A program made the position numbers and the translations under genes. A stretch of DNA of 64,000 nucleotides from Deltaproteobacteria bacterium YD0425bin50 (GTDB lineage Bacteria; Desulfobacterota; Desulfobacteria; Desulfobacterales; YD0425bin50): assembly GCA_002753105.1 (NCBI GenBank), contig PDZT01000003.1, positions 1,059 through 65,058 on the forward strand, given 5' to 3'. The notes under the pieces are model-generated. The model was not told the origin of the DNA and did no database searches. It saw only the letters and a program-made list of their open reading frames with translations. The stretch's first letter is position 1; the number at the start of each line of letters is the position of its first letter. Below are positions 3,767-35,617 of this stretch, one piece after another.

Positions 3767-3873
3767 TACAGACTTTCAGATAATTAATTACACAAGGCTA
3801 GAGGGAGGAGATAATACATTTTAGTATATCTCTGACTGATAACGCAGTGAAATTATTTATCTGAAAATCTATA
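3767..3873. repeat. ~105-bp palindromic MITE-like element, family A, copy 1
   Basis: Terminal IR AGACTTTCAGATAA...TTATCTGAAAATCT; near-identical to 29234-29339. Confidence 0.85.
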
Positions 3874-19801: not shown

Positions 19802-20233
19802 ATGATCATGGAAAGAATTTTATTGGTAGATGATGAAAAAGAATTTATTGAACCGCTTGCAGAAAGAATGCGCAATCGTGGTATGAACGTATCAACCAGC
19901 ACATGTGCCAAGGAGGCTATCAAAAAAGTTCAACAGGAAACGTATGATGCAATCATTTTGGATTTAAGAATGCCTGAAATGGATGGGATCGAAGCGTTAT
20001 CTGTTCTAAAAGAAAAAAATCCGGATTTGCAAGTCATTTTACTGACAGGCCATGCCACTGTTGAACAAGGTGTACAAGCCATGAAACTTGGCGCTATGGA
20101 TTTTTTAGAAAAACCGATTGATATTAAAGTGCTCAGTGAAAAAATCAAAAAAGCAAAAGCAGAAAAGATGATTCTTGTGGAAAAACGATCAGAAGAAAAG
20201 ATAAAAAAGATTATGATAGAAAAGGGATGGTAG
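19802..20233 (+). CDS. Response regulator (receiver)
   Basis: LLVDDE...LDLRMP...LTGHA...KP. Confidence 0.93.
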   Translation: MIMERILLVDDEKEFIEPLAERMRNRGMNVSTSTCAKEAIKKVQQETYDAIILDLRMPEMDGIEALSVLKEKNPDLQVILLTGHATVEQGVQAMKLGAMDFLEKPIDIKVLSEKIKKAKAEKMILVEKRSEEKIKKIMIEKGW

Positions 20234-20246
20234 GTTTTTGTCCCCC

Positions 20247-20317
20247 TTCTTGCTCTTACTCTTGCTCTTACTCTTCATTGTAATTCACAATTTGCGATCA
20301 AGAGTAAGAGCAAGAAG
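20247..20317. repeat. Inverted repeat made of (A/G)CTCTT hexamers between convergent genes
   Basis: ttcttgctcttactcttg...caagagtaagagcaagaa. Confidence 0.6.
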
Positions 20318-20327
20318 AGCAAAAAAA

Positions 20328-21641
20328 TCAAGTTATTAAATTAGTAAGCTCGTCTATCTCGTAATATGGTTTATTTGCTTTTATGGAAATAAATTTTTTT
20401 TCTGGATACTGCAATGCGGTTAAAGCCCCTCCAAAAACACAACCTGTATCGATATTGACGGTGCGGTTGAACCATTGTGGTTTTTCAACAGGAATATGTC
20501 CATAGACAATACGAGCATCACCTGAGTGTTTAGCTGGCCATTCTGGTTGATATGAAGGAACAATACCCAGTTGTGGCTCACTTATATTTTCTCCATACAA
20601 ACAAAAATGGTTGACTGCCTTCGAAATTCTGCCTTGCATATTCTGTAACATTCCAGCATGTGAAACAATTAAGTTGCCGTGATCAAATAGATAATGATAG
20701 CTTAACTGTTCTAAAAACTGCTGAATATATTGCATATAAAGGTAATGGATTCCTATGGGAATGGATTCAAATGCTTGAAGCGTCTTTTTTAAAGAGCTGT
20801 GACAATTTTTTCCGCAAGACTTAAACCAATTCAATAAAAACCGTTCATGGTCACCCAAAATACAATACGCATTCCCTTCATGAACCATGTTTGAAATTAA
20901 TGATATAGTTTCAAGAATTTTCGGGCCATAATTCACAACATCGCCTATAAAAATTACTTTTCGGTTAGTTGGATGCTTGTAGAAAAGATTATATTCTTGA
21001 AAAATAGGCGAGGCTATCAGGTGTTGTTGATAGCCAAGCTTTTCAAGTAAAACGATCAATTCATCATAGCATCCATGTATATCACCAATGATGTCAAACG
21101 GTCCTTCGATAAGGTGACGATCACATGCAAGTGGTTCTAGTTCCACATGAATTTCATCTACTGAAGTGTCATCGTTAATATAGTATATTTTATGAAATCC
21201 TTCATTTACAATCTCGATAAGCGAATTTTGGAGCTGATAGTGCTGTCTATGAATAATAAACGGATCAACTTGCCGATCAAATCGCAATTGATTTCTATCT
21301 TGACATGTCTTTTCAGAAAAATTAAACACAATTGCTATGGGTAATATGTGATACGACTTTGCGAATTTCAGTAGAGGTTGCCGAGCAGCTTTAAGAACAT
21401 TTGTGGAATCGATGATTGTTAATTTCCCTTTTTTAAGCCTGTTTTGGGCAATAAAGTCAAGAATTTCAAAGGCTTCACCTGTAACAGTCTGATCATTTTC
21501 ATCATCTGAAATCATCCCGCGAAAAAAGTCTGAGGAGAGGATTGAAGTAGATTGGAAATGCTTTTTCGCAAAACTTGTTTTGCCAGAACCAGAAGGGCCA
21601 ATTAGAATAACAAGTGCTAATTGGGGGATATTAATTTTCAT
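20328..21641 (-). CDS. Polynucleotide kinase-phosphatase (Pnkp-like) lacking the ligase domain
   Basis: GPSGSGKT P-loop, LSSDFFR, DSTN kinase motifs; GPFDIIGDIHGC, HAG, YGH, IDTGCVFGGALTAL phosphoesterase motifs; ends at 437 aa. Confidence 0.88.
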   Translation of the reverse strand: MKINIPQLALVILIGPSGSGKTSFAKKHFQSTSILSSDFFRGMISDDENDQTVTGEAFEILDFIAQNRLKKGKLTIIDSTNVLKAARQPLLKFAKSYHILPIAIVFNFSEKTCQDRNQLRFDRQVDPFIIHRQHYQLQNSLIEIVNEGFHKIYYINDDTSVDEIHVELEPLACDRHLIEGPFDIIGDIHGCYDELIVLLEKLGYQQHLIASPIFQEYNLFYKHPTNRKVIFIGDVVNYGPKILETISLISNMVHEGNAYCILGDHERFLLNWFKSCGKNCHSSLKKTLQAFESIPIGIHYLYMQYIQQFLEQLSYHYLFDHGNLIVSHAGMLQNMQGRISKAVNHFCLYGENISEPQLGIVPSYQPEWPAKHSGDARIVYGHIPVEKPQWFNRTVNIDTGCVFGGALTALQYPEKKFISIKANKPYYEIDELTNLIT

Positions 21642-21808: not shown

Positions 21809-24800
21809 ATGATAATCGCGGGTGAATTGATAGCGGAAAGCCCAATATATCGGGGGAATTCTCGAAAAACTCTTTTTACCAGAGATGGGGATGGAACACA
21901 GCGTTTGGTATCTTTAGCCGGAGAAATATCGGGCACAGCTCAGGCACTTATGGATGCTTTTATTGGTAGATCAAAAAATTCCAAAAATATGGGGCTGATT
22001 AATCGACTTTGGGAGAGATTATACAAATCGCCTTTTCCAGACGGACTTATTTCAAAGATAGATTGCAAATTAAGAGCGGATTATTATCCTAAAAATAAAC
22101 TGTTTGATTTACGCATGGGAATCAAACTAGATGACGATCGTTGGGCAATTGAGGCTCATAAAAATTACAAAATCGAAACATTATATCGTAATTCAGTTTT
22201 TGATTTTGCAATGTATGTCAATGATGGAATGGCACAACGAGATAACAATATGGTTAAGCTATATTTTATTTTAGATGAGTTGAAGGCAGGAAGATTTTGG
22301 TTTGGGGCTGGCAAAAGTAAAGGATTGGGAAGATGTAAATTAAAGTTGAATACAAAATTAGAAGCCCCCAAACAATTACCCCAGATCAATTCACAGGCAA
22401 ATCATTTATGCATTCAAATGACTATTGATTCGCAAAATCCTATTTTGATTGGCTGGCCTTGGGGAAAATTAGACCCGGACACACCTGCATTCGCTAACGT
22501 TAAAGGAAAATTTCTTATCGAAGGCTTAAGCGAGCTGCCTGATACTCTTTCGAGTCGTCTATCCACAAGTATTGGAGGGTCAATATCGGATATGAACGAC
22601 TGGAAAAAGAAGTTTGCAGAAAGTCTTCCGCAGGCGATGATATATGCGTTGTTGGATCAGCCCACAAGCACACAGGTTAAATATATTTTACCGAAAACTT
22701 CAGTTAACAAACTGGCGAAAGGTAAGTATCCAATTGCTCAAAAGATTCTTGATAAGCTTGCACCTGTTCTTGATAAAGAATATGACAGTCAGGAAGACAG
22801 CATTGCTGAAATTAATGAACTTTTAGGAAAAGAGGCTTCTAAAATAATAAAACGCGTAGAATCTTTGTTTGAAAATAAAACAATCACTGGAAAAAGCATA
22901 AATAAAAATAATTTACAATCCATTACGACTTCTTTTGGATTATTGCCGGATCAACTACAGTCTATTGAAAGTGCGGGAGTTGATGAAGCCAAACTAAAAC
23001 CGATTATATCTGAAATTTGCAAAAAGGTACTCCCCCGATTATATCAAGGGATTGATCGTCAGGTAAAGATGCTGCAAAGTGATCTTTGGGTTGACACAGA
23101 AATCACAGGGCGTCGAGAGCATTTGCAAATCAAAGAAATGTTGTTAAACGGAAAAATTACAGAAAGGGATTGGGATAATTTTTCAAAACCCCCTGCGAGT
23201 ATTAAAGAAACAGTTTGGCGTCAGTTTAAGAAAGAACATGAGAATGTTCGGTATAAATTCATGATGAACATGCAAAATCTCAAAAAAAGTATTCAAAATG
23301 ACAAGAACTATATTGAATTTTTGGAGGTTTTTCGTAATCAGGTTCGTCAGGAACTGAGTCAGCTTAACAATATTGATTTTCGTTCTGGAGGGCCAGATCA
23401 TGAAATTTCCAAAAAATATGGTAAGCCATATGATAATATGTTTATGCGCATGATGATATGGGCACCTTCTCAACAGAAAAAAGGTGAATGGGAAATTTTT
23501 ATTCCGGGGTCAACGCTAAAAGGTGCATTTCGAAAACGGGCAAGTATGCTCTTAAATACGATTATGGGTGACCGAAGACGAGGTCAATTCATTATCGATC
23601 GGTTATTTGGAAAACAAGGGAGTACAGGTCTTCTCTTTTTTTCAGATGCATATTTGGTAAACCCAAAAGACATTAATACAAAATTTTGTTCATTAGATGG
23701 CATTCGCATGGACCCCGCAACTGGCACTCCAGTTGAAGAAGCCAAAGCTGATTTCTTATTTACTTATGGAAGTGATCTTAAATTTGCTTTTCGACTCGAT
23801 TTGCAGGATATTACTGAAGCAGATTCAGATTCTCTTGCAGTATTTGGTTATTTGCTGAACGATTTTGGCCGTGGAGATATTCCTATTGGATCATTAAAAA
23901 CATCTGGATTTGGATGGGTGAAATCATCCATTGACAATATTGAATGGTTAACGCTTTCCAATCGTGGTATCCATCAAAAATTCTTCGGCAAACTTAAATC
24001 ATCTGGTCAATCAGGTCTGTGGAGTCAGACACTGATTAAAGGTCAGGAAATCACTACATTGATTCAAAGCATGCAAGCCGAAAAACTGTCCCAAAAAGAA
24101 ACTGAGGCTATTTGTCCCATTCCAAGAGCAAGAGAAGGCTTTATTTCTCATAGTGCTTTTGGCGGATATTGTGGCCATCTAAATGTAATCGGAGAAATCG
24201 TTACGCCAATCTCTATTTGTGAAAGTGGAGAACCGACCTTTCAGAAAAAAATTGAAAATTCGCTTGTCAAAGGCTGGGACTTTTTTTCATTTAGTGCGCC
24301 AGAAGCCAATTCGCGCAGTACTGAAAAAAACTATGCCATTCCAAGTAAAAGCCTCAAAGGAATGATCCGGCATATTTATGCGATAACGAGCAATTCTACA
24401 AAAGAAACTCCAGATATCAGCCGGCTGAATCCCACGGATAGTTTATTCGGCTGGGTTGGTAAACGGCCAAACGAAGCCATTATGGGAAGAATTTCTATTG
24501 ATTTCGGAAAATTTACGGATACCCGGCTTTCATGGTATAAAATCCCCTATCCGTATGGATCATGGCAATTTAAAAATAACCAATGGCAACAAATTGAAAA
24601 AGGGTCTGTTCAAAAAATTCAAGTTAATAATCAATGGCGCATATTTCCAAATGTTCCCCTTGCACCCTGTGTTTATCAATTAAACGATGATTTCCAGCCG
24701 GATACACCTCAAGCTGCATATGTTCATGCGATGCTTCCCGGTGTACCCTTTACATTCTCTATTCGTTTCTGGAACCTTGAAAAAGAAGAATTACAAAGAT

Positions 24801-25036
24801 TAATCTGGTGCATCCAGTTAGATAATTCAATGGCTCATAAAATTGGCAATCATCGATATCTGGGCTTAGGAACGGTTCGTTTTCAAATTTCACCAGAAAG
24901 TCATTTAATTGATTGGAAAGCCCGTTATGAAGGTCGATCTGATAAAACGTGGCAAATTCCTATAACCGTATCTGAATGGATCAATCCTAAGGTACTTTCC
25001 AATTTATCCACTTTGCAGCAATTGCTAAAATGTTAA
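21809..25036 (+). CDS. Type III CRISPR-associated RAMP fusion with three Cas7 domains
   Basis: Three RAMP start strands (ESPIYRG, QNPILIG, VTPISI); IPGSTLKGAFR and IPSKSLKGMIR; LFG motifs; three G-rich loops (FGAGKSKGLG, IGSLKTSGFG, IGNHRYLGLG). Confidence 0.88.
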   Translation: MIIAGELIAESPIYRGNSRKTLFTRDGDGTQRLVSLAGEISGTAQALMDAFIGRSKNSKNMGLINRLWERLYKSPFPDGLISKIDCKLRADYYPKNKLFDLRMGIKLDDDRWAIEAHKNYKIETLYRNSVFDFAMYVNDGMAQRDNNMVKLYFILDELKAGRFWFGAGKSKGLGRCKLKLNTKLEAPKQLPQINSQANHLCIQMTIDSQNPILIGWPWGKLDPDTPAFANVKGKFLIEGLSELPDTLSSRLSTSIGGSISDMNDWKKKFAESLPQAMIYALLDQPTSTQVKYILPKTSVNKLAKGKYPIAQKILDKLAPVLDKEYDSQEDSIAEINELLGKEASKIIKRVESLFENKTITGKSINKNNLQSITTSFGLLPDQLQSIESAGVDEAKLKPIISEICKKVLPRLYQGIDRQVKMLQSDLWVDTEITGRREHLQIKEMLLNGKITERDWDNFSKPPASIKETVWRQFKKEHENVRYKFMMNMQNLKKSIQNDKNYIEFLEVFRNQVRQELSQLNNIDFRSGGPDHEISKKYGKPYDNMFMRMMIWAPSQQKKGEWEIFIPGSTLKGAFRKRASMLLNTIMGDRRRGQFIIDRLFGKQGSTGLLFFSDAYLVNPKDINTKFCSLDGIRMDPATGTPVEEAKADFLFTYGSDLKFAFRLDLQDITEADSDSLAVFGYLLNDFGRGDIPIGSLKTSGFGWVKSSIDNIEWLTLSNRGIHQKFFGKLKSSGQSGLWSQTLIKGQEITTLIQSMQAEKLSQKETEAICPIPRAREGFISHSAFGGYCGHLNVIGEIVTPISICESGEPTFQKKIENSLVKGWDFFSFSAPEANSRSTEKNYAIPSKSLKGMIRHIYAITSNSTKETPDISRLNPTDSLFGWVGKRPNEAIMGRISIDFGKFTDTRLSWYKIPYPYGSWQFKNNQWQQIEKGSVQKIQVNNQWRIFPNVPLAPCVYQLNDDFQPDTPQAAYVHAMLPGVPFTFSIRFWNLEKEELQRLIWCIQLDNSMAHKIGNHRYLGLGTVRFQISPESHLIDWKARYEGRSDKTWQIPITVSEWINPKVLSNLSTLQQLLKC

Positions 25037-25908
25037 CTGAATTTGATCTATTAAGGCGGTCTCAATCTGGTCTGGAATTATTGGCTATACTGACATTGCT
25101 AAACAAAGGGCCTTCCATTTTATCAATGCAAATGGAATTGGGACCGCCTTATTCAATTTTAAATGGCCCTTGTACAAAATGCTGGTTAAACGTTAGAGAA
25201 GCTGAACACATGTACTGCGAGCTTTGTTTAAGTATCATGGAATATAAAAAAGGAGTTGGGAAGTACATACGTAACACCGCAGTTATATGGGGATATCTCA
25301 ATAGGATTCCTGAGTATTTTCATGAAAATATGTGGAAAACTGGTAATAAACCATCAGGAATTTATATTCATCCACCATCTTCTTTTTTGTTAATGATTCC
25401 AAAGGATGAAATCAGGCTGTTTTTAAAAGAGCTGACGCTTCGCTATGGAGATGATATTCAAGGACTACTTCAGATTTTTCCGACCTCGGGGATGAAACGG
25501 ATAACCATGGGAGAAGCTTTATGCCGAGCTATTCATTATGAAAATTGTTACCCACTGGACAATCTGAGGATTCGTTTCTATTCTAATCCATTACAGCTTA
25601 ATCGTCCGCATATCAGGGATAGTAAAGGAATGTTGACTTTTGAAATCTGTGAATTTTTGGATTTATTAGAAATGGCCAGTATATTTCGGTCTTTACTTAC
25701 AAAAGACCAGCAAATTGATTTGTATGAAATTTTTACCAAATGTGAAGATGTCAGGGAACTCAGCTTTTTTTGGGGACGTTTTTATGGTGTAATTGGTGAA
25801 AAAGCTAAAGATATGTTGTCAACCTGGGACATTAGACAATGGTCTCAAAATAAATTTGAATTAATTTATGAATTAAGGGATTATGTGGCCTTTTCAAAAA
25901 CAGATTAG
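25030..25908 (+). CDS. Zn-finger protein; possible highly reduced Cas10-like subunit
   Basis: CTKC...CELC; start overlaps the RAMP gene stop by 7 nt; no HD or GGDD motif. Cas10 call is inference from layout and context. Confidence 0.5.
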   Translation: MLTEFDLLRRSQSGLELLAILTLLNKGPSILSMQMELGPPYSILNGPCTKCWLNVREAEHMYCELCLSIMEYKKGVGKYIRNTAVIWGYLNRIPEYFHENMWKTGNKPSGIYIHPPSSFLLMIPKDEIRLFLKELTLRYGDDIQGLLQIFPTSGMKRITMGEALCRAIHYENCYPLDNLRIRFYSNPLQLNRPHIRDSKGMLTFEICEFLDLLEMASIFRSLLTKDQQIDLYEIFTKCEDVRELSFFWGRFYGVIGEKAKDMLSTWDIRQWSQNKFELIYELRDYVAFSKTD

Positions 25909-26941
25909 AATGATTCGATATTTGTGTTTCTGGCGTGTTAATTCTTCATTGGCTGTCTTACCCAATCCCTTTTCAGTGGAATTATCGAAAGTTTTATGTA
26001 CAATCATTTCTTCAAGGCTACCCACAAGAGATGCTGGAAAATGGAAAAAATGTTTACTTGCATATGATAACTTTATTGAAACTGTAAAAAGCCAACAAGC
26101 TCCCAAAACATCAGAACTGACACCTGAACTTTCATGGCCAATTCAAAGTGTACTTTTTGTTTATCCATGTAAAAATATCTATGGAAATGGGGAAAAGATT
26201 GTTTGGGAACTTAAATTATTTGGAGAAGATGCAAGCCATGAATTTTTTATTGAAGTTATCTTGCCAGCAATGGAAGAAGCAAGTCTAAGAACGGATTCAT
26301 CTTGGAATTATCGAAATTGTATTTGGGGGAACTTTGATATTGAAGCGATCTATCTTGCTAATCAAGATAGGTGGGACCCACTCGTTTCAGAAGGCAGACT
26401 GGATTTACAATACAACGTCACATCACTTCAATATACTGATGATATTTTTAATAAATATTCGGATCCTATTAAGTATAATTATCGAAAAATCGTATGGTTA
26501 ACTCCGTTTGATTTTTCGTCAATCTTCAGTAGTACCAAAAAATATGTGCAGACGGATGTATTACCGGTCATTGATGCAACACCAACTCTGTACGGAATTG
26601 TAGATGCACTGTTATACCGATTACATTCTATTTTAGAAGGGAAACGGACTGCACCTGAAAATGTCTGGAATTGTTTTTCAGAACAAGAAACGAATCAGTT
26701 ACATACATTGATGGATGAAATTAAGCGTATTAATACGACAAATACTGATATTCTTCCCTCTCAACATGTAATTGGACACTGGATTGGACATCAGACTTTT
26801 GCTCGAATTCCATACACGATTTATCCTTATCTGGAATTAGCATCCATGCTCCATATTGGCCGACAAACTCATGTAGGCTGCGGAACTTTTCAAATCGTTA
26901 AATATCCGGCTAAGTATGATTCAAATTCTTTAAACACCTAA
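25883..26941 (+). CDS. cas6: Cas6-like crRNA-processing endoribonuclease
   Basis: C-terminal G-rich loop LHIGRQTHVGCGTFQI; WLTP strand; WELKLFG; located in RAMP operon. Confidence 0.72.
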   Translation: MWPFQKQIRMIRYLCFWRVNSSLAVLPNPFSVELSKVLCTIISSRLPTRDAGKWKKCLLAYDNFIETVKSQQAPKTSELTPELSWPIQSVLFVYPCKNIYGNGEKIVWELKLFGEDASHEFFIEVILPAMEEASLRTDSSWNYRNCIWGNFDIEAIYLANQDRWDPLVSEGRLDLQYNVTSLQYTDDIFNKYSDPIKYNYRKIVWLTPFDFSSIFSSTKKYVQTDVLPVIDATPTLYGIVDALLYRLHSILEGKRTAPENVWNCFSEQETNQLHTLMDEIKRINTTNTDILPSQHVIGHWIGHQTFARIPYTIYPYLELASMLHIGRQTHVGCGTFQIVKYPAKYDSNSLNT

Positions 26942-26964
26942 TTACATAGTATTGAGTTATTCTT

Positions 26965-29151
26965 ATGATTCTTGAAGAAATAAAAGATACAATTGAGTTC
27001 ATTAAATCGGATCTTTGTAAACAAGTTGAAGAAGTTGTCAATCAATCCATTCATAGCATTGTTCGAATTCCTCTTGAAATGAACCATCTTCTACTCCCAT
27101 TGCATATCATTCAGCATGCATTGCCTTCAAACAGCAGATGCTGGTATGTTTCACCTGAGGATCGGCTAAGTCAATTTAAAACCTCAGTTATGCTTAATCA
27201 TTTCAAAGAAGGCATAGTTGATGTGAACACCTACTGGCAAATTGATGGATATCAAAAAACAGTAGTTTTCTGGTCAACAGAAAGCCTTGTGGATCATTTG
27301 ATCGAAATAGAATCTAATGATATGCAATATCCTGATTTTATTGTATTTGATGAAATGGACATCGTTACTCCTGAGATTAATTCACGTATGGTGGAGTTAC
27401 TGTTACGAATTAATACACGTGTTCACCTATTTTTTTGTGTATCGTATGAGCGCAATATTAATCAGGTAACACACTGGATAGAACAGATTTTAAAACAACC
27501 CTATCAGATGATTCTTTTAAATACGACACCGAACAAATTCTTACCTGTGCTTTTGGGTTCATGGGATTTAATCCCGTTTATTGATAAAAAACGCGTTGCA
27601 TTAAAAGCGAAGCGCTATTTAAAAGAAAATCCAGATATTATCAAAGTGAATGATCACAAATTTCGATATGAACTGGTTGACTATTTAAGAAAGAAAAATT
27701 TTACTCCCTGTATTGTTATATTGAATTCATCGGAGGATTGCGATTCTTGGGTAAAAACTGCATCTAAGAAACCAACACACCATGAAAATGTGGAATCGAT
27801 ATTAAACCATTTTAAATGGAAAACAGGAATAGAATTTGACCCTTCAGAGCTAACAGATTTACTAAATAAAAAACTCGGCGCTATACATTCCAAATTGCAT
27901 TATCGGTGGGCAGAACTCATTGAATACTTGTTTTTTTATAATATTATTGATGTACTATTTACCACACTGAACTATAGTGAACACATCCATGCACATGCTA
28001 AAACCATAGTTATATGCACTACGAATCGTGAAGTTGTTCAAAATTCTAATCCAGATGTCATGAATTCTGTAGATACATATCACATCAAGCGATTGGCTAC
28101 GAGACATAATACCGAAAACATTAATCACATTATAGCGCTTCATACCCGAGACATGGATATCACGCACCTTAAAGATATGCTTGTTTCACCACCATCAACG
28201 TTTAATTATCCTTTACACGTTGGATTTCCATTCTTGCTTGGCTTAATGTCGCTTTTAGACAAAGATCCAATTGAAATCGTTCATGATGTTTTTCAGTGGG
28301 AGCCCATCGATGATGAAACAGGTACAAGACTTTTGGCCATGTTTGATGAAATCAAAACAGAATTACCCGAAGCAAATTGTGGCTCTTCATTGGCAACACT
28401 GAAACTAAGAGATATCATGTTTAGATTACAACAACAGATCAATGATGTTGAAAATAAAATTAAACACGAACAGAAAAATAAATTCGGCAGGTTATATGAG
28501 CAGCAGCTTCAGGAATTATTAAATGAAATTGAGTTATTACCATGCAATTCATGCCCTAATTATCAAATCTGTCATCGGAGATCGCACCGTAAATTACGAA
28601 ATTTATTTGATGAATACTTCCAATTGAACCGAAAAATATTTAAAAGTTTTGCATTTTCTCAAATTGAAATAAGCGATTATGTAAATTGCCTAAGACATGT
28701 GAATGCCATTGATGAAAAAAACCAATTAACCCATTTCGGGCGTCTGTCATCGAGATTTTCTCTTACCTTTCCTATGTTACTTGCAACGTGCATTGAACAA
28801 GACATGTTCAAAAAACAATCGGATTCAAGCCTCAATGTTGCATTTGCGGGGAGTTTTTCGGAAAGCGATCTCTCTATACCTATGGGGAAATATGATGATT
28901 TTGTCTTTCAGGATATTATCAATGGGTATGATCAGATTATTGATCTGATCACTCCAATGAGACGCTCCATCTATAAATATGGTTTTGTACCCAATAAGCC
29001 TTCATTACTTTTCGGGATGATACTAATGGCTTGGCAATCAGGAATGGATATCCATTATATTGTAAGCCGATTGAATATCTCAGAAGGTGCGTTTATTAAT
29101 TTATTTTATAAAGCAAATTATTTATATCATCGAATCACTACTGCATTGTAA
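26965..29151 (+). CDS. Ski2/HelY-like SF2 helicase, catalytically degenerate
   Basis: IVFDEMD (motif II variant); PCIVILNSSEDCD; GAIHSKLHYRWAELIEYLF...VLFTT; LPCNSC; LTHFGR; C-terminal AWQSG...ISEGAFI resembling DSHCT; no recognisable GKT Walker A. Confidence 0.72.
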   Translation: MILEEIKDTIEFIKSDLCKQVEEVVNQSIHSIVRIPLEMNHLLLPLHIIQHALPSNSRCWYVSPEDRLSQFKTSVMLNHFKEGIVDVNTYWQIDGYQKTVVFWSTESLVDHLIEIESNDMQYPDFIVFDEMDIVTPEINSRMVELLLRINTRVHLFFCVSYERNINQVTHWIEQILKQPYQMILLNTTPNKFLPVLLGSWDLIPFIDKKRVALKAKRYLKENPDIIKVNDHKFRYELVDYLRKKNFTPCIVILNSSEDCDSWVKTASKKPTHHENVESILNHFKWKTGIEFDPSELTDLLNKKLGAIHSKLHYRWAELIEYLFFYNIIDVLFTTLNYSEHIHAHAKTIVICTTNREVVQNSNPDVMNSVDTYHIKRLATRHNTENINHIIALHTRDMDITHLKDMLVSPPSTFNYPLHVGFPFLLGLMSLLDKDPIEIVHDVFQWEPIDDETGTRLLAMFDEIKTELPEANCGSSLATLKLRDIMFRLQQQINDVENKIKHEQKNKFGRLYEQQLQELLNEIELLPCNSCPNYQICHRRSHRKLRNLFDEYFQLNRKIFKSFAFSQIEISDYVNCLRHVNAIDEKNQLTHFGRLSSRFSLTFPMLLATCIEQDMFKKQSDSSLNVAFAGSFSESDLSIPMGKYDDFVFQDIINGYDQIIDLITPMRRSIYKYGFVPNKPSLLFGMILMAWQSGMDIHYIVSRLNISEGAFINLFYKANYLYHRITTAL

Positions 29152-29233: not shown

Positions 29234-29339
29234 TATAGACTTTCAGATAATTCATTTCACAAGGCTAGAGGAGGAGATAATACATTTTAGTATATCTCCG
29301 ACCGATAACGCTGTGAAATTATTTATCTGAAAGTCTATA
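29234..29339. repeat. Family A palindromic element, copy with perfect termini
   Basis: TATAGACTTTCAGATAA...TTATCTGAAAGTCTATA. Confidence 0.88.
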
Positions 29340-29397: not shown

Positions 29398-31296
29398 ATG
29401 GAACAAGTACCTATCCTCAAAAAACAAGGTTTTTTATTGAATCCAAAACTACAAAAAATGCTCAATCTGATTAACATCATCACTATTCTTGTGATTGTGG
29501 TGGTAATACCTATTGTGATGATTACGGGAATTACAGATACGTTTGTTACGACACTTACCCAAACGGTAATTATTCCTCAGGCGAATCTCTTTATGAAAAA
29601 TAATCCTGAATTTTTAAGTGATATTGGGAAAAAAATCGATAAAGTATCGCTGATTACGATGGTGAATCGTCTGTTAAAAGATGAACCCGGCGTTATTAAT
29701 GGCTACATCCAACCGTTGGATACCGATTCTCTGGCCAATGCACTAAATATTGTTATCCGTGAAAATCCCAAATTAGCCAGCCAGTTGGTCAATGGCTTAG
29801 ATGCCCAAGCATTAGGAACACTCATCAATAATATTCTACAAAACAATCAGGTATTTACTCAGAATCTTATTTCAGCTTTAGATAAAAAAGCATTAGTTGA
29901 AGTGATTAATGCAATACTTGAAAAAAATGGCGATCTGATTATCGCAATTGTTTCAGGACTAAATCCACAGGTTGTTTCTGGTATTATCAATCAAATATTA
30001 AAAGAACATGCTGATGTCATCTCTGCATTAGTTGGTTCTATGGATGCTAAAGCCCTAGGCCAACTTGTAACGCGCCTATTAACCGAACACAGCGATTTTT
30101 TAAATCAATTACTCGCTGGACTTGATCCCAAAATAGTAGGTTCAGCCATAAACCGGATTACATCTGAACAACCTGAATTCATTATTGGTTTAATCAATGC
30201 ATTAGATGCAAAATCAATTGGAAATGTTCTGAACACCATATTAGACAAAAATAAACCATTTGTGCTTGCACTTGTAAAACATATAAACACAGGATTATTG
30301 GCTAATTTAATCAATGGTATTCTTGAAAATCAACCCACGCTACTTTCGGATTTGCTTGGTCAGTTAAATCCTCAACTGCTTGCCAAAACACTGAATCTGA
30401 TTCTTGAAAAAAACGCGAATTTTGTAAGCAGTCTTATTGGGTCTTTAAATGTAAATGCACTGGGAAATACGGTAAACCGAATTCTGAAAGACCATCCGAG
30501 TTTTGCAAATCAATTAATTTCTTCTTTAGATGCAGGTCTCTTGGCTCACACGTTGAATGGCATTTTAAAAGCCAATCCATTATTCATGCCTAATATCATT
30601 GGTGGATTAGAACCTGAACTGCTTGCCCAACTGATCAATACCATATTAGATCAGCATTCAGGGCGTGTCAGCATACTTATCGGTAAGCTTAATATGCCCT
30701 CTTTGGCAAAGCTATTGAATAGCGTATTACGTGAGAATCCAGACATGCTCGTATCGCTCATACGTAATCTTGATGCAGGTATTTTAGCCGCATCACTGAA
30801 TAGCGTATTAACCCAAACATCAGAGTTTGCAAGTAAACTGGTAGGTTCGCTTGATGCCAAAGCCATTGCACAGATTGCAAACAGATTATTAAAGGAACAT
30901 CCAGAATTCGTTTCTAATCTGGTCGGCGGTATGGAACCAGCCATATTAGGGAAATGTATAAATAGATTACTTAAAGACCAGCCTGTATTTTTAGGCGAAC
31001 TGATCGCCAATATTGATACAAAAATACTTGCCAATACAGTGAATAACCTTTTAACCAAAAATCCCAATCTTGTTAAACAACTTATACCAGAACTGAATCC
31101 TTCTGCTGTCAGCAAGCTGTTAAACAACGCTGAAAAAGAAGTGTTAGCCTTAGCCAAAGAATTAATGCAGGGACAAAATATGCTTGCCCGAATTGGATTT
31201 ATTCATAAAAGTAATTTAGGTACGGGACCGGGGATTCCAGCGGTAACAGCAACAACCACATTGGTTGAATTGATTACCACAGAAACGAAACGTTAA
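29398..31296 (+). CDS. Membrane-anchored protein with ~18 tandem 27-aa helical repeats
   Basis: N-terminal TM helix; consensus L(D/N)xxxLxxx(I/L)Nx(I/L)LxxxPxFxxxL(I/V)xx; AAGGAG RBS. Confidence 0.85.
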   Translation: MEQVPILKKQGFLLNPKLQKMLNLINIITILVIVVVIPIVMITGITDTFVTTLTQTVIIPQANLFMKNNPEFLSDIGKKIDKVSLITMVNRLLKDEPGVINGYIQPLDTDSLANALNIVIRENPKLASQLVNGLDAQALGTLINNILQNNQVFTQNLISALDKKALVEVINAILEKNGDLIIAIVSGLNPQVVSGIINQILKEHADVISALVGSMDAKALGQLVTRLLTEHSDFLNQLLAGLDPKIVGSAINRITSEQPEFIIGLINALDAKSIGNVLNTILDKNKPFVLALVKHINTGLLANLINGILENQPTLLSDLLGQLNPQLLAKTLNLILEKNANFVSSLIGSLNVNALGNTVNRILKDHPSFANQLISSLDAGLLAHTLNGILKANPLFMPNIIGGLEPELLAQLINTILDQHSGRVSILIGKLNMPSLAKLLNSVLRENPDMLVSLIRNLDAGILAASLNSVLTQTSEFASKLVGSLDAKAIAQIANRLLKEHPEFVSNLVGGMEPAILGKCINRLLKDQPVFLGELIANIDTKILANTVNNLLTKNPNLVKQLIPELNPSAVSKLLNNAEKEVLALAKELMQGQNMLARIGFIHKSNLGTGPGIPAVTATTTLVELITTETKR

Positions 31297-31453
31297 TTAT
31301 TTTTATGGCATTGTTCAACATTAGAACTACTGAAAAGTGTTGATTTCAGTTAATACCTTATAGTAGAAGTAAAAGCATCATAGCTACTCAAAATATCGGT
31401 TCCACAGATGAAGTTGTCCAATTTATTATTGTTGCACAAGGAGATATCAAGGA

Positions 31454-34400
31454 ATGAAATGTTTATTTAAACAAAAAATAGTAACCTATTCCATTCTTAT
31501 GGGTTTATTATTATGGAATCATCATCCTAATGCATTGGCGATAGATACATGGAATACATCAACGATTGGAGTTGATATTAAAACCGATGTTACGAGTATT
31601 GGGCCTTCCACTGGACGAACTTTAAATATAAGTATCTTTGGCTTGGATCGTCAAGGTAATATTGATGTATATGGGGAATCCGGTGGTTCTTCAATTATTG
31701 CATCTGTAACAACTTTATTAGGAAATTCTGTGTATGGAAACACATCTCCCAAACAAGCATCAGGTAATACATCGACGTTAGGAACATTCGCAACCACGGT
31801 TGGATATATTCGGCTTTCACATGGTATTGGTTTAACTCATATTACTTATCCCAACGATGTAAGCGGCAAAGACACGGTTAAAGTCGTATTGTTTGAAACC
31901 AGAACAGATGAAAGCGGAGTGAATGTCCAGACACGCCAAATTGAAATGAAATCCATCACTATTGATGTAGCTCAAGCAGACCCAGCAGTAAGCATTTTAA
32001 ATATTGAATCATTTACCAAAACATCATCGGATACATATGGTCAAAGTGAAACCTACCCTCAGAATCCAACAAATGAAGATGGGGACTCAGGATTACGTGA
32101 AGGATATGCAAAAGTTTCAGTAAACAGGGCCGGGGGGCTTTTTGTTGTAAAGGCATATCATATCAAACCTGACCGATCGTACCAGCTTGCAACCACAGCC
32201 ACTGGACTGGTAACTATGACGTTAACGGGTTACTCTGATGCATATGAATCAGATGGAGATAATGTAGCCAAGGAAAGCTATGTCTATACGATGACCGGAC
32301 AAATGAGAGATGGCCAAGCTTCTCTTTCTATACCCACGGGTATTACTAAAGCAGGCCGATACAGAGTTGCTGCAACCATGAGTACCATCAGTTCTATCAA
32401 TCATCGATTAACCAATAATAAAAATAATGTGGATTACCTTGATGTGCTTCCAGATATCTACTCAGCATCCATTAAATTGACCTGTAACATGAGCGTTGTA
32501 TCCAATACTCCAGCTAATAATCAAACCCCAGACGCTGATGATGATGGTATTGTGTTTGATCCAACATTTACAGCATCACTTTTAGATCAATATGGGAATT
32601 ATGTGAATAAAACCGCAAACATGGGGGTAGATGTAAAAATCAGTGATGCTCAATCTAAAATTGCTAATTTTACAATAACGATACCAGCAAATGCAAATAC
32701 CGCGAGTTTATTAGTGGATAGCAGCACATTTTCTATAGGAACTTCATTACTGACTGCAACTGTACCCTTAAATTCAAGAATCCAGCCATCTTCAGAACTC
32801 AAATTAAAAATCGTATCATCAGATAATCAGCTTGCAATGGCTTATAGTCCTTTGATTGAAGGTGATCGAGATTTGTACCCAAATGCTGTAACAGCCGGGT
32901 CTGCTTTTGATTTTGCTCAGACATTTATTGGAGTTGATACCAATTCAGATGGTGATGCTTCTGACGGAATTGAGAATACAAGATTAACAAACACAGATCA
33001 ACTGTTGATCACAAACCTGCGTAAAGAAGAAACCATATCCGTTTGGGTACTGGATGGAACTCCAGATCAAATCCGTGCAGCCTTTACAAAGGTATGCAGC
33101 AAAACTGATTTGCAAACCTATGGGGTTCTCATTCATCATAAATCAGAAAGTTATGCAGATTGTATTGTATATCCATCTACTTCGTCGAATCTTGAAATTA
33201 CTACAGGCTCGCCTTATAAAGCCTATATAAAAGACTACTCTGGTAATATTGTTACAGAAGCTATCCCAAAAGTCGGTACAACCGGTTCGTTTACATTGAT
33301 ACTCAACGCATCCCGTGTTTCTTTTGAAGATGCTTTTGGCAATATTTGCAATACAGGAAACATACGGATTGCAACGGATAAAGGAACCGCCACCGATCCA
33401 GTTGCGATTGGTTCTGCAACAAAATATATTACTGTCACCTATGGGGGGACTTCTGTAGGTGAAGACCAACTCAACATTACATTTACCCAACCGGGAATAC
33501 AATCTATCAATAATGGTGCAGGCTTAAAGGTGAAATTCCCAAAATCAAACAACACGCTTGCCACATTTGAAGTGTATCCAAAACCATCAACAAATATTAT
33601 CGTTCTGCCAATCAATGGCACTATACCCATTACGATTTTACCCAAAGATTCCGCTGGCAATAACGTTACATTAACGAACGGAATGTTTATTGATTATGAT
33701 GTAGCCGGCATGTCGCTATATGTATTAAATTCCACGACACCTATCGTATCTGGCGATCTGATTGGTATTAATATGGATCGACTGCCATTAAAAGTTGAGG
33801 CGAAAACAACGAGTGGGACGTATTCCATAAAATTACGCAGCTATGACAGCCTGAAAAGAAAAACCATCAATGTCAAAGTGCAGCCCTATAACGTACCACT
33901 TCAGGTATCTTCTCAAAACGTATCAATTGTATTGGGAGATACTGAAACCATTTCGATTTTTGGTGGCATCCCGCCCTATTCTTTATCAATACCAATAGAA
34001 TCCCAACAGTTTATTTCTGCAATTCTTGCTGAATCGACTGTTCAAATCAGACCCTTTAATCTATCAGATGCCCCAGTAGTCTTGACAATTATGGATAAGA
34101 ATAAAACTCAAGTGAATGTTTCCATTACCATTTCCAGACCTCCTCAAGAATATTTTGTGGGGCCGTCATTACTAAAGCTTGAAGAAGGACAAACTGGCAT
34201 TGTGAACGTGTTATACGGTAGTCCACCCTATACGATTAGCCTAGAAGGATCAGATTATATCCGCTTAAGCACATTTCATTTACCAGAAGATGGGCAAATC
34301 ACGGTTACAGGTTTACGAACAGGGAATGGAAGAATTACTGTTACTGATCAGGCGAATAAAGAATCTGTTGTAGATGTTACTGTCATTAATGCAAGTGTAG

Positions 34401-34891
34401 TGATTCAAACTCCAACTGCTCCTGTAATTCAGATGCCAACTACACCCGATCAAATTACCAAACTATCCCCTTTAAGCATTGGTTCTTTAATTACTAATCC
34501 AGCAATTCCGGGGCATCTAAAGATTAATGATACCATCGGTCTTTCTGTGAAATTTGGTAAATATAGTGAAGAAATGAAATTGTTTATATGTATTGGATTC
34601 CCTCCGGATCCAACCAGTACGGCAAATATTTTAATTCTGAATAGTAATCATGAATTTATACCCTTAGAATCTACTGGATTTATTCCATTTGCTACAGGTA
34701 TTGGACCATTTGTGGAAACCATTTTTAAACCTGCTCCAATTTGTACACCATTTGGACCTTCCATTCCAGAAGGCACATGGCTGATCGCATGGATTGTTAT
34801 TCCTTCAACTCAGGACATTCATACAGTAAATTGGGCAAAAGACGCGCTCTTTTTTGGTATGTATTCCTTTGATGTTTCGTGTACACCATAG
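31454..34891 (+). CDS. Large secreted beta-rich (Ig-like) surface protein
   Basis: Signal peptide; Ser/Thr-rich beta strands; D.YGN/DAFGN/DSAGN turns; two G..PPY(S/T) modules. Confidence 0.7.
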   Translation: MKCLFKQKIVTYSILMGLLLWNHHPNALAIDTWNTSTIGVDIKTDVTSIGPSTGRTLNISIFGLDRQGNIDVYGESGGSSIIASVTTLLGNSVYGNTSPKQASGNTSTLGTFATTVGYIRLSHGIGLTHITYPNDVSGKDTVKVVLFETRTDESGVNVQTRQIEMKSITIDVAQADPAVSILNIESFTKTSSDTYGQSETYPQNPTNEDGDSGLREGYAKVSVNRAGGLFVVKAYHIKPDRSYQLATTATGLVTMTLTGYSDAYESDGDNVAKESYVYTMTGQMRDGQASLSIPTGITKAGRYRVAATMSTISSINHRLTNNKNNVDYLDVLPDIYSASIKLTCNMSVVSNTPANNQTPDADDDGIVFDPTFTASLLDQYGNYVNKTANMGVDVKISDAQSKIANFTITIPANANTASLLVDSSTFSIGTSLLTATVPLNSRIQPSSELKLKIVSSDNQLAMAYSPLIEGDRDLYPNAVTAGSAFDFAQTFIGVDTNSDGDASDGIENTRLTNTDQLLITNLRKEETISVWVLDGTPDQIRAAFTKVCSKTDLQTYGVLIHHKSESYADCIVYPSTSSNLEITTGSPYKAYIKDYSGNIVTEAIPKVGTTGSFTLILNASRVSFEDAFGNICNTGNIRIATDKGTATDPVAIGSATKYITVTYGGTSVGEDQLNITFTQPGIQSINNGAGLKVKFPKSNNTLATFEVYPKPSTNIIVLPINGTIPITILPKDSAGNNVTLTNGMFIDYDVAGMSLYVLNSTTPIVSGDLIGINMDRLPLKVEAKTTSGTYSIKLRSYDSLKRKTINVKVQPYNVPLQVSSQNVSIVLGDTETISIFGGIPPYSLSIPIESQQFISAILAESTVQIRPFNLSDAPVVLTIMDKNKTQVNVSITISRPPQEYFVGPSLLKLEEGQTGIVNVLYGSPPYTISLEGSDYIRLSTFHLPEDGQITVTGLRTGNGRITVTDQANKESVVDVTVINASVVIQTPTAPVIQMPTTPDQITKLSPLSIGSLITNPAIPGHLKINDTIGLSVKFGKYSEEMKLFICIGFPPDPTSTANILILNSNHEFIPLESTGFIPFATGIGPFVETIFKPAPICTPFGPSIPEGTWLIAWIVIPSTQDIHTVNWAKDALFFGMYSFDVSCTP

Positions 34892-34912: not shown

Positions 34913-35617
34913 ATGAAGTATTATCCGATTCAGTTAGATGTTCGTGAAAAGAAGTGTTTAATTATTGGTGGTGGAAGTGTTGGAACACGCAAGGCAGCTA
35001 CACTGATTAACTGTGGTGCAAAGGTTACGATTGTTAGTCCTGAAATCACCGATGTTATTGAATCCATGTCAACCGATGGAATGATACAATTACAAAAACG
35101 TGAATATCAGTCTTCTGATATTCATGGTATGTTTCTTGTCATTGGTGCAACAAACAACGAAATATTAAATCGACAAATTTCTAATGATGCACAGGAACAT
35201 AATATCCCATGTAATATTGTTGATCGTCCGGAATTGTGTTCATTTATTCTGCCCGCAATTGTTGAACAAGGTGATTTGACCATAACCATCTCAACATCAG
35301 GTCAAAGTCCAGCATTTGCCAAACATTTACGACGGGAATTAGAAAAACAGTTTGGACATGAATATGCGATTTTCCTTAAATGTATGGGCGAAATTCGTAA
35401 ATACGTGCTGAATTCCAATTTAGAACTGAATACGCATCAACACATATTTGAAACAGTGATTCAACGTGGATTATTGGATTTAATTCGTCAACATCAATAC
35501 ACAGAAATCAACACCTTATTGCATGATCTACATATTGAATTAGATTCTAAAACACTAATAGAACTAAACATAGGTGAGAATTATCAACCAACCCGCAAAC
35601 CTTCTAAAGCTTTCTAA
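34913..35617 (+). CDS. sirC: Precorrin-2 dehydrogenase / sirohydrochlorin ferrochelatase (CysG N-terminal-like)
   Basis: YYPIQL...LIIGGGSVGTRK; CNIVDRPELCSFILPA; ISTSGQSPAFAK. Confidence 0.88.
   Translation: MKYYPIQLDVREKKCLIIGGGSVGTRKAATLINCGAKVTIVSPEITDVIESMSTDGMIQLQKREYQSSDIHGMFLVIGATNNEILNRQISNDAQEHNIPCNIVDRPELCSFILPAIVEQGDLTITISTSGQSPAFAKHLRRELEKQFGHEYAIFLKCMGEIRKYVLNSNLELNTHQHIFETVIQRGLLDLIRQHQYTEINTLLHDLHIELDSKTLIELNIGENYQPTRKPSKAF

Follow-up and report, generated by a model that had tools for sequence, protein, structure and literature searches.

A type III-I CRISPR-Cas cassette without an array in a Desulfobacterales genome, with a pseudo-helicase as candidate accessory

How can an RNA-guided system operate from a locus that holds no guides? 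This question is raised by four closely packed genes on contig PDZT01000003.1 of Deltaproteobacteria bacterium YD0425bin50 (order Desulfobacterales), which look like a clustered regularly interspaced short palindromic repeats (CRISPR) operon with no repeat array beside it. The DNA analysed is a 64-kb stretch of this contig, here called the window; the genome to which it belongs (G000) is an assembly of 589 contigs which is 75% complete. Judged from their sequence, the genes cas7-11i, cas10i and cas6i in window 21809-26941 make up an intact type III-I CRISPR-Cas cassette. It is followed by the gene for an eroded helicase-like protein, here called the pseudo-helicase, and preceded by the gene for a short enzyme which resembles bacterial Pnkp. 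The reading favoured here, to which we give a probability of about 0.7, is that the intact III-I cassette has been extended in this lineage by the pseudo-helicase as an accessory and by the Pnkp-like enzyme, and that its guides are supplied in trans.

The three cas proteins all exceed the cut-offs of the NCBIfam models for subtype III-I. For the first, NF049957 ('type III-I gRAMP effector Cas7-11i') gives 1663.9 bits against a cut-off of 800, and the match spans residues 1-1074 of 1075. For the second, NF049958 ('Cas10i') gives 367.1 bits against a cut-off of 175; for the third, NF049959 ('type III-I Cas6') gives 254.9 bits against 160, the match covering residues 2-211. The initial annotation of this DNA had read these genes as a fusion of three Cas7 domains, a Cas10-like remnant and a Cas6, and had suggested the label III-I, 'Cas7-11i' with a diverged Cas10. 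The gene calls hold, and the suggested label is the one used by the NCBIfam models and described in the paper that defined the subtype (Makarova et al., Nat Microbiol 2025, PMC12669027). According to the text of that paper, III-I systems have two hallmarks: a Cas7-11i protein with three Cas7 domains and a Cas11 domain, and an extremely diverged Cas10 which lacks the N-terminal cyclase domain and is recognisable by structure only. The same text places III-I in more than 160 genomes, chiefly of Thermodesulfobacteriota and Chloroflexota, and predicts RNA cleavage from conserved aspartates. Because all three proteins exceed the III-I cut-offs and the subtype has already been published, the core of the finding is already known; the locus is a new member of a known subtype. 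Arrays, Cas6 and a helicase are not mentioned for III-I in the text of PMC12669027, the figures and supplement of which may show arrays or further genes. Beyond this defining paper, the literature searched contained no other paper describing III-I or naming Cas7-11i, and no description of an extension of III-I by a pseudo-helicase or a Pnkp-like enzyme was found in the literature text searched.

The domain structure of Cas7-11i is apparent from its full-length match to NF049957 together with three separate regions matched by the Cas7/Csm3 models of PADLOC (residues ~95-186, 520-718 and 797-1049). A helical region at ~230-545 is putatively Cas11-like, following the literature description. Pfam finds a RAMP domain and a weak Cas6 match in the cas proteins, and nothing more. 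In an alignment with up to 80 relatives, the window protein keeps 297 of the 324 family columns that are conserved at ≥95%. Four aspartates (D26, D28, D613 and D824), each conserved in ≥95% of 80 relatives, are present in the window; D222 is nearly invariant among 10 sequences. The protein is the most divergent of the aligned set, being 60% identical to its homologue on a metagenome record (L194) but only 48-50% identical to most relatives, the group of the III-I exemplar included. In a tree of 93 rows, from which eight duplicate rows were removed and G726 was excluded (its gene is split), the window and the metagenome contig to which L194 belongs (L193/L194) are sisters with full support. Run against solved structures, a Cas7-11i profile gave nothing beyond local matches to Cas7-11e and III-D proteins. 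Cas10i keeps 30 of 33 conserved family columns, including the four cysteines (C48, C51, C63 and C66) which are invariant in 51 sequences. A profile of these 51 sequences found no Cas10 by sequence among solved structures; the text of PMC12669027 likewise describes Cas10i as having no sequence-level similarity to Cas10. Cas6i keeps 31 of 34 conserved columns, H119 included, and its C-terminal part gives weak Cas6 matches which take in the G-rich loop. Broken relatives occur as well: Cas7-11i is split into two frames at G726:C35:10365-13587, and Cas6i is split or truncated at L033 577-987 and L037 3930-4947.

The exemplar of the subtype, the III-I locus of Desulfonema magnum (L133), has the same three genes in the same order as the window and, like the window, has no array, here within 10 kb. 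The window differs from it in having the pseudo-helicase gene after cas6i and the Pnkp-like gene upstream, and its Cas7-11i pairs separately with that of the metagenome contig. The exemplar genome (G839), unlike the window genome, has no member of the pseudo-helicase family. Type III-E systems ('Craspase', in which Cas7-11e/gRAMP is paired with the protease Csx29) are also built on one fused multi-Cas7 effector, a predicted cutter of RNA guided by CRISPR RNA (crRNA), and the two effectors are locally similar in the C-terminal Cas7 domain (1.4e-15 to 7yn9); in both systems a protein partner may replace cyclic-oligoadenylate signalling. However, the window effector has three Cas7 domains whereas Cas7-11e has four, and the window retains a Cas10 derivative. 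The III-E model NF041225 gives 62.2 bits with the window protein against a cut-off of 700, and none of the neighbours scanned proved to be Csx29-like. The III-D-type RAMP model TIGR03986 also stays below its cut-off (105.6 bits vs 161.35), and neither a full Cas10 nor a Cas5 is present in the locus.

To what extent is this three-gene cassette a unit in its own right? A search for related loci using the Cas7-11i protein alone returned nothing. A pattern scan of species-representative genomes, run with ten Cas7-11i sequences, gave 194 relatives, of which 80 were kept with flanks of ≤10 kb; these span Chloroflexota, KSB1, Gemmatimonadota, Poribacteria, Desulfobacterales and other groups, and include the exemplar. 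Cas7-11i is present in all 80 loci, Cas10i in 79 and Cas6i in 75, and the absences are mostly at contig ends. Clustering of open reading frames (ORFs) in the flanks found no further conserved family; the extra clusters were alternative-frame ORFs lying over the trio. No CRISPR array was found at any of the 80 loci (1,225,672 bases) by a search which recovered the known array of contig C417 as a positive control. A further 11 loci found by genome search, 13 from genomes carrying a pseudo-helicase gene and two metagenome records also gave no array; these sets overlap, with at least eight rows identical between them. The initial annotation had seen no array in the window, and none was found in its 64 kb by Tandem Repeats Finder or by a direct-repeat search. 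At all the loci examined, which span several phyla, III-I appears to be a self-contained module of three genes without an array.

Five repeat regions were considered as arrays and rejected. L016 1175-1772 is a coding 66-nt repeat, and L016 17238-17438 is an identical 67-nt tandem repeat. L133 5968-6605 is an intergenic 56-nt tandem repeat which is 98% identical throughout and has no variable spacers, and L202 18096-18598 is an intergenic 67-nt tandem repeat, again without variable spacers. L070 2223-2445 consists of three palindromic 25-mers ~100 nt apart. It should be noted that the exemplar genome contains long near-perfect tandem repeats (56 nt at L133 and 67 nt at L202), by which a naive array finder is misled.

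The guides are probably supplied in trans, and the window genome has several other CRISPR systems. Contig C417 (L025 4-3368) carries type I-E genes in the order Cas7e, Cas5e, Cas1e, Cas2e, followed by an array of at least eight repeats at the contig end. This is the only contig of G000 on which Cas1 was detected, in agreement with the initial annotation, which had seen no cas1 in the window. There is no cas6e between cas5e and cas1e, the frames of which overlap, and the casE model has no match in the 75%-complete assembly. Another Cas6, either that of the III-B system or Cas6i, might process the I-E array. A type III-B operon on C398 (L023 9569-16213) encodes Cas6, Cmr1, Cas10/Cmr2, Cmr3 and Cmr4 and runs off the contig end; a second type III fragment, on C485 (L024), encodes a Cas10-like protein and RAMPs. 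With the I-E system, the III-B operon and this further fragment, G000 carries at least three CRISPR-Cas types besides III-I. In a set of 80 genomes from the order, 27 of the 33 which are III-I-positive have a Cas1 vs 23 of the 47 which are III-I-negative. A supply of guides in trans is plausible, as G000 holds a I-E array and a III-B system and Cas1 is frequent in III-I-positive genomes. The earlier proposal that guides are made elsewhere fits these data, in that related loci have no array and Cas1 lies elsewhere in 27 of 33 genomes; the crRNA source itself is one that we infer.

The protein encoded by the fourth gene (728 aa) matches no family in Pfam, NCBIfam or PADLOC at the usual thresholds, and a first homologue search returned only the protein itself. 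When 1.84 billion representatives were searched exhaustively, 133 relatives came up at E≤1e-3, of which 30 reached E≤1e-30; most of these are ~720-760 aa in length. Its likeness to Ski2, Mtr4 and HelY is seen at several levels. Against solved structures, phmmer found FRH/MTR4/DOB1/SKI2 (E 1.6e-9 to 2e-5), and a profile of 28 family members found SKI2 and MTR4 at E 2e-58. An Atlas model of the protein, with a predicted template-modelling (TM) score of 0.72, suggests the same fold, aligning with HelY/DEAD+DSHCT clusters at TM 0.72-0.74 over ~611-656 residues. Sequence and model together indicate two RecA-like domains and a ratchet/DSHCT C-terminal region, as in Ski2-like proteins; the DSHCT domain scores 14.3 bits in the window protein (cut-off 22.7) and is above the cut-off in family member P0014 (26.9). 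P0014 (L072 9107-13924) is a 1605-aa frame in which the pseudo-helicase family member runs into an M1 aminopeptidase with Peptidase_M1_N, Peptidase_M1 and ERAP1_C domains; it may be a fusion or a missed stop, and is found in one genus only.

The intact ATPase motifs of Ski2-like superfamily 2 helicases are lacking from the window protein. In the columns which we take, from the helicase literature, to be the Walker A (GKT), DExH, SAT and motif VI positions, it has IPLEMNH at Walker A, DEMD at motif II, VSY at motif III and LATRHNT at motif VI. Given IPLEMNH, DEMD and LATRHNT at these positions, the protein should not be filed as an active helicase. The erosion is shared in part by the family: a clear GxGKT is present in six of the 28 rows and a canonical motif VI in none, and motifs III and VI are degenerate family-wide (the 28-row alignment is too variable for pattern scanning). 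The ~900-aa relatives have a long arch insertion; the pseudo-helicase has a short stretch instead, closed by four invariant cysteines (C472, C527, C530 and C536). At the level of sequence, homology and eroded motifs support the earlier description of a dead Ski2-like helicase. The window protein differs from Ski2, Mtr4 and HelY in having no Walker A GKT, and its family differs in being seen only in III-I-positive genomes.

This distribution was established in a sample of 401 genomes of the order, in which a family member was defined as full length at E≤1e-120 and a III-I-positive genome by Cas7-11i at E≤1e-100. The pseudo-helicase family is present in 17 of 33 III-I-positive genomes vs none of 368 III-I-negative genomes. 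HelY-type helicases form the background, with 362 of the 401 genomes matching the family profile at E≤1e-10. These counts are weakened by the scoring of two first-look candidates per genome; because of this limit, 45 III-I-negative genomes of the six families involved were re-run with every candidate scored, and 0 of 45 carried the family (positive controls, 2/2). In five genera (g379, g340, g51, g328 and g382), the sole III-I-positive species is also the sole carrier of the family. Twelve of 80 III-I-positive species representatives have the family, and all 12 are among the 18 of delta-proteobacterial type.

The genes are also found together elsewhere. A scan with the three closest family members found a metagenome contig of 59% GC, represented by the two records L193 and L194, on which the order is Pnkp-like gene, cas7-11i, cas10i, cas6i and pseudo-helicase gene, as around the window cassette. 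Identities to the window proteins are 48% (Pnkp-like), 60% (Cas7-11i), 51% (Cas10i), 62% (Cas6i) and 34% (pseudo-helicase). The pseudo-helicase gene overlaps cas6i by 46 nt, the three cas proteins are above the NCBIfam cut-offs, and there is no array on these records. The five-gene order is common to organisms of 36% and 59% GC, at protein identities of 34-62%. Co-divergence was measured as well. Across 16 genomes, the patristic distances of the pseudo-helicase correlate with those of Cas7-11i (r 0.74), and the partial correlation given RpoB is 0.60 (permutation p 2e-4). In a 12-genome subset without the near-duplicates G598, G631, G683 and G726, r is 0.58 for the pseudo-helicase with Cas7-11i vs 0.33 for the pseudo-helicase with RpoB, and the partial correlation is 0.56 (p 8e-4). 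G000, the assembly of which has no rpoB, is excluded from the RpoB comparisons.

Several observations weigh against a close tie. In the full set the pseudo-helicase also correlates with RpoB (r 0.63), so that the mirror-tree signal is partly that of species phylogeny; long branches contribute too, and the co-divergence signal is supportive, not decisive. When the flanks of 80, 5 and 7 other III-I loci were searched with the family profile, no member turned up apart from one marginal match (1e-4) at a contig edge. The other 16 family-carrying genomes of the order have the family member and III-I on different contigs, and at 13 other family loci the neighbours are of housekeeping type (CysS, radical SAM, M20 peptidase, glycosyltransferase and NmrA-like), with no cas gene among them. 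The genomes compared are related and do not count independently; one taxonomic family, f175, supplies 8 of the 17 positives. The pseudo-helicase family was not found in any of 62 III-I-positive genomes outside the delta-proteobacterial groups; five Chloroflexota/KSB1 III-I genomes have no match even at 1e-10, and in five III-I-positive genomes of other orders the only match is the ordinary ~900-aa helicase. Within the order it is lacking from 16 of the 33 III-I-positive genomes, one of which is the complete chromosome G839 with L133. III-I clearly works, or at least persists, without the pseudo-helicase. The initial annotation had proposed that its four-gene reading would fail if the genes were not conserved together, and here the outcome is mixed: the adjacency recurs on L193/L194 and the family occurs only in III-I genomes, but the fourth gene is not beside III-I in the other genome loci searched. 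The pseudo-helicase is at most a lineage-restricted accessory.

The Pnkp-like protein resembles the Pnkp of the bacterial Pnkp/Hen1 RNA repair system in its kinase and phosphatase domains (AAA_33 and Metallophos in Pfam), which match positions 1-419 of the 851 in TIGR04075 at 493.9 bits, below the cut-off of 750. It differs in that the ligase half is missing, leaving two of the three domains of Pnkp, and in that its gene adjoins a CRISPR effector gene. The homologue on L193/L194 lies directly upstream of cas7-11i on the same strand. Homologues at E≤1e-20 are present in 6 of 33 III-I-positive vs 0 of 47 III-I-negative genomes. The link of this gene to III-I is nevertheless weaker than that of the pseudo-helicase, as three of the six genomes are in one family (f10), the gene is unlinked to III-I in the other genomes, and no homologue was found at any of the 80 other III-I loci.

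The ORF listing places all four genes of the operon exactly where the initial annotation had them, co-directional and tightly packed (Table 1). Overlaps of 7 nt (cas7-11i/cas10i) and 26 nt (cas10i/cas6i) join the cas genes, and a gap of 23 nt, in which no terminator-like site was found, separates cas6i from the pseudo-helicase gene. A ribosome-binding site rated good (AAGGAG) lies 5' of cas7-11i. The Pnkp-like gene is divergent from cas7-11i, with 167 bp between them. The window contains 50 ORFs of ≥100 aa. The scan for cas5, csx19 and CARF covered 15 ORFs of window 13564-44751, namely the four genes of the operon and 11 of their neighbours. No cas gene was found among these 11 neighbours.

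Table 1. Genes of the III-I locus and its candidate accessories (window coordinates)
Feature	Position	Strand	Length and description
cas7-11i	21809-25036	+	1075 aa; single-protein gRAMP effector, subtype III-I
cas10i	25030-25908	+	292 aa; very diverged, short Cas10 derivative with conserved four-cysteine motif
cas6i	25883-26941	+	352 aa; predicted pre-crRNA processing endoribonuclease, subtype III-I
Ski2/Mtr4/HelY-like pseudo-helicase	26965-29151	+	728 aa; candidate III-I accessory
Short Pnkp-like polynucleotide kinase-phosphatase	20328-21641	-	437 aa; candidate accessory

Other features surround the locus. The spacer after the pseudo-helicase gene is occupied by a palindromic element of ~107 nt (window 29234-29339), with a second copy at window 3770-3873. 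It is predicted to form a hairpin of -48 kcal/mol, and ~50 contigs of G000 carry copies at 92-99% identity; it resembles miniature inverted-repeat transposable elements or repetitive extragenic palindromes. A long hairpin at window 20245-20327, between the convergent genes 19802-20233 and 20328-21641, is probably a bidirectional terminator; in Rfam it gives only sub-threshold microRNA-like matches. An Rfam scan of window 15000-45000 found nothing above the gathering score, only sub-threshold chance-like matches. Downstream of the locus, window 29398-34891 contains two large ORFs (632 and 1145 aa), both of unknown function. For the 1145-aa product there is no relative among solved structures and only a weak lead to Ig-like (Big_2/NUP210-type) repeats, and neither ORF is found beside any of the 80 other III-I loci. 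A Wadjet/Mks-like defence system after 29398 was considered and rejected, as the PADLOC matches are only faint. Window 34913-35617 is siroheme-synthase-like.

How might such a locus work? Cas6i would cut pre-crRNA from an array located elsewhere in the genome, and the crRNA would be bound by Cas7-11i together with Cas10i. Complementary RNA would be cleaved by Cas7-11i through the conserved aspartates of its three Cas7 domains. With neither a cyclase nor an HD part in Cas10i, no cyclic-oligoadenylate signalling would be expected. The pseudo-helicase would act as a III-I accessory, the gene for which mostly lies away from the cassette but belongs to the operon in the window. It probably binds RNA rather than unwinding it, and could either retain the target or the products of its cleavage, or link the effector with RNA decay. 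Cleavage by Cas6 and Cas7 leaves 5'-OH and 2',3'-cyclic-phosphate ends, and Pnkp heals such ends; the Pnkp-like enzyme could do so for the ends made by the effector.

These roles can be combined in a more specific proposal, which is offered tentatively and is perhaps a one-in-three matter rather than an even one: III-I may have an accessory arm. In it, an eroded Ski2/Mtr4/HelY-like protein, found in III-I hosts only, would serve as the RNA-holding partner of the effector and would be joined by the Pnkp-like enzyme in the sub-lineage of the window. The arm would bring about either the complete decay or the controlled repair of target RNA, replacing the signalling lost by Cas10i. Csx29 with Cas7-11e, and Ski2/Mtr4 feeding the exosome, may be taken as loose analogues of such a partner role.

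Three other explanations have to be weighed. One accepts the cassette as III-I but regards the pseudo-helicase and the Pnkp-like protein as chromosomal bystanders, which co-occur with it through shared ancestry or ecology. The lack of adjacency in the other genome loci searched, the housekeeping-like neighbours of the family elsewhere, its descent from HelY-type helicases that are near-universal in the order (362/401) and the clustering of 8 of the 17 positives in one family can all be read in this way. It is nevertheless unlikely: the pseudo-helicase family was found in none of 368 III-I-negative genomes, nor in any of the 45 in which every candidate was scored, and it follows III-I in five within-genus contrasts. 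The five-gene order conserved between organisms of 36% and 59% GC and the partial mirror-tree correlations of 0.56-0.60 also argue for a link with the cassette.

The other two explanations concern the cassette itself. It may have left adaptive immunity and become an RNA-guided or guide-independent machine for RNA binding or regulation, possibly working with a non-CRISPR RNA, with the pseudo-helicase and the Pnkp-like enzyme in an RNA-processing pathway. No array was found at the loci examined, the locus has no adaptation genes, the enzymatic parts of Cas10i have been lost according to the text of PMC12669027, and no Cas1 was seen in 6 of the 33 III-I-positive genomes. However, 75 of 80 loci retain a Cas6 of their own, which argues for the processing of CRISPR repeats; Cas1 is commoner in III-I-positive genomes (27/33 vs 23/47), and the Rfam scan of 15000-45000 offers no candidate non-CRISPR RNA. 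Repurposing is held to be less likely still than the bystander explanation. That the locus is instead a decaying, non-functional remnant of a fuller III-D-like system is very improbable. The missing array, cas5 and adaptation module would suit a remnant, as would the divergence of the window Cas7-11i, with its 27 disagreements at columns conserved at ≥95%. But all four frames are open, ~91% of the conserved columns are kept (aspartates and cysteines included), and the three-gene unit recurs across several phyla; broken copies elsewhere (L033, L037 and G726) are occasional exceptions. An intact III-I cassette, extended in this lineage by accessories and guided in trans, remains the preferred reading.

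Compact single-protein RNA-targeting effectors are of practical interest, and subtype III-I has so far been defined by comparative genomics only. For an array-less system, the source of the guides is the first thing that experimenters need to know. With the pseudo-helicase, a system in which Cas10 is without its usual outputs gains a concrete candidate partner that can be tested. Should the link prove true, it would be a case of a dead helicase taken up as a CRISPR accessory, and would mean that an accessory encoded away from the cas operon may be found by its phyletic pattern and not by its gene neighbourhood.

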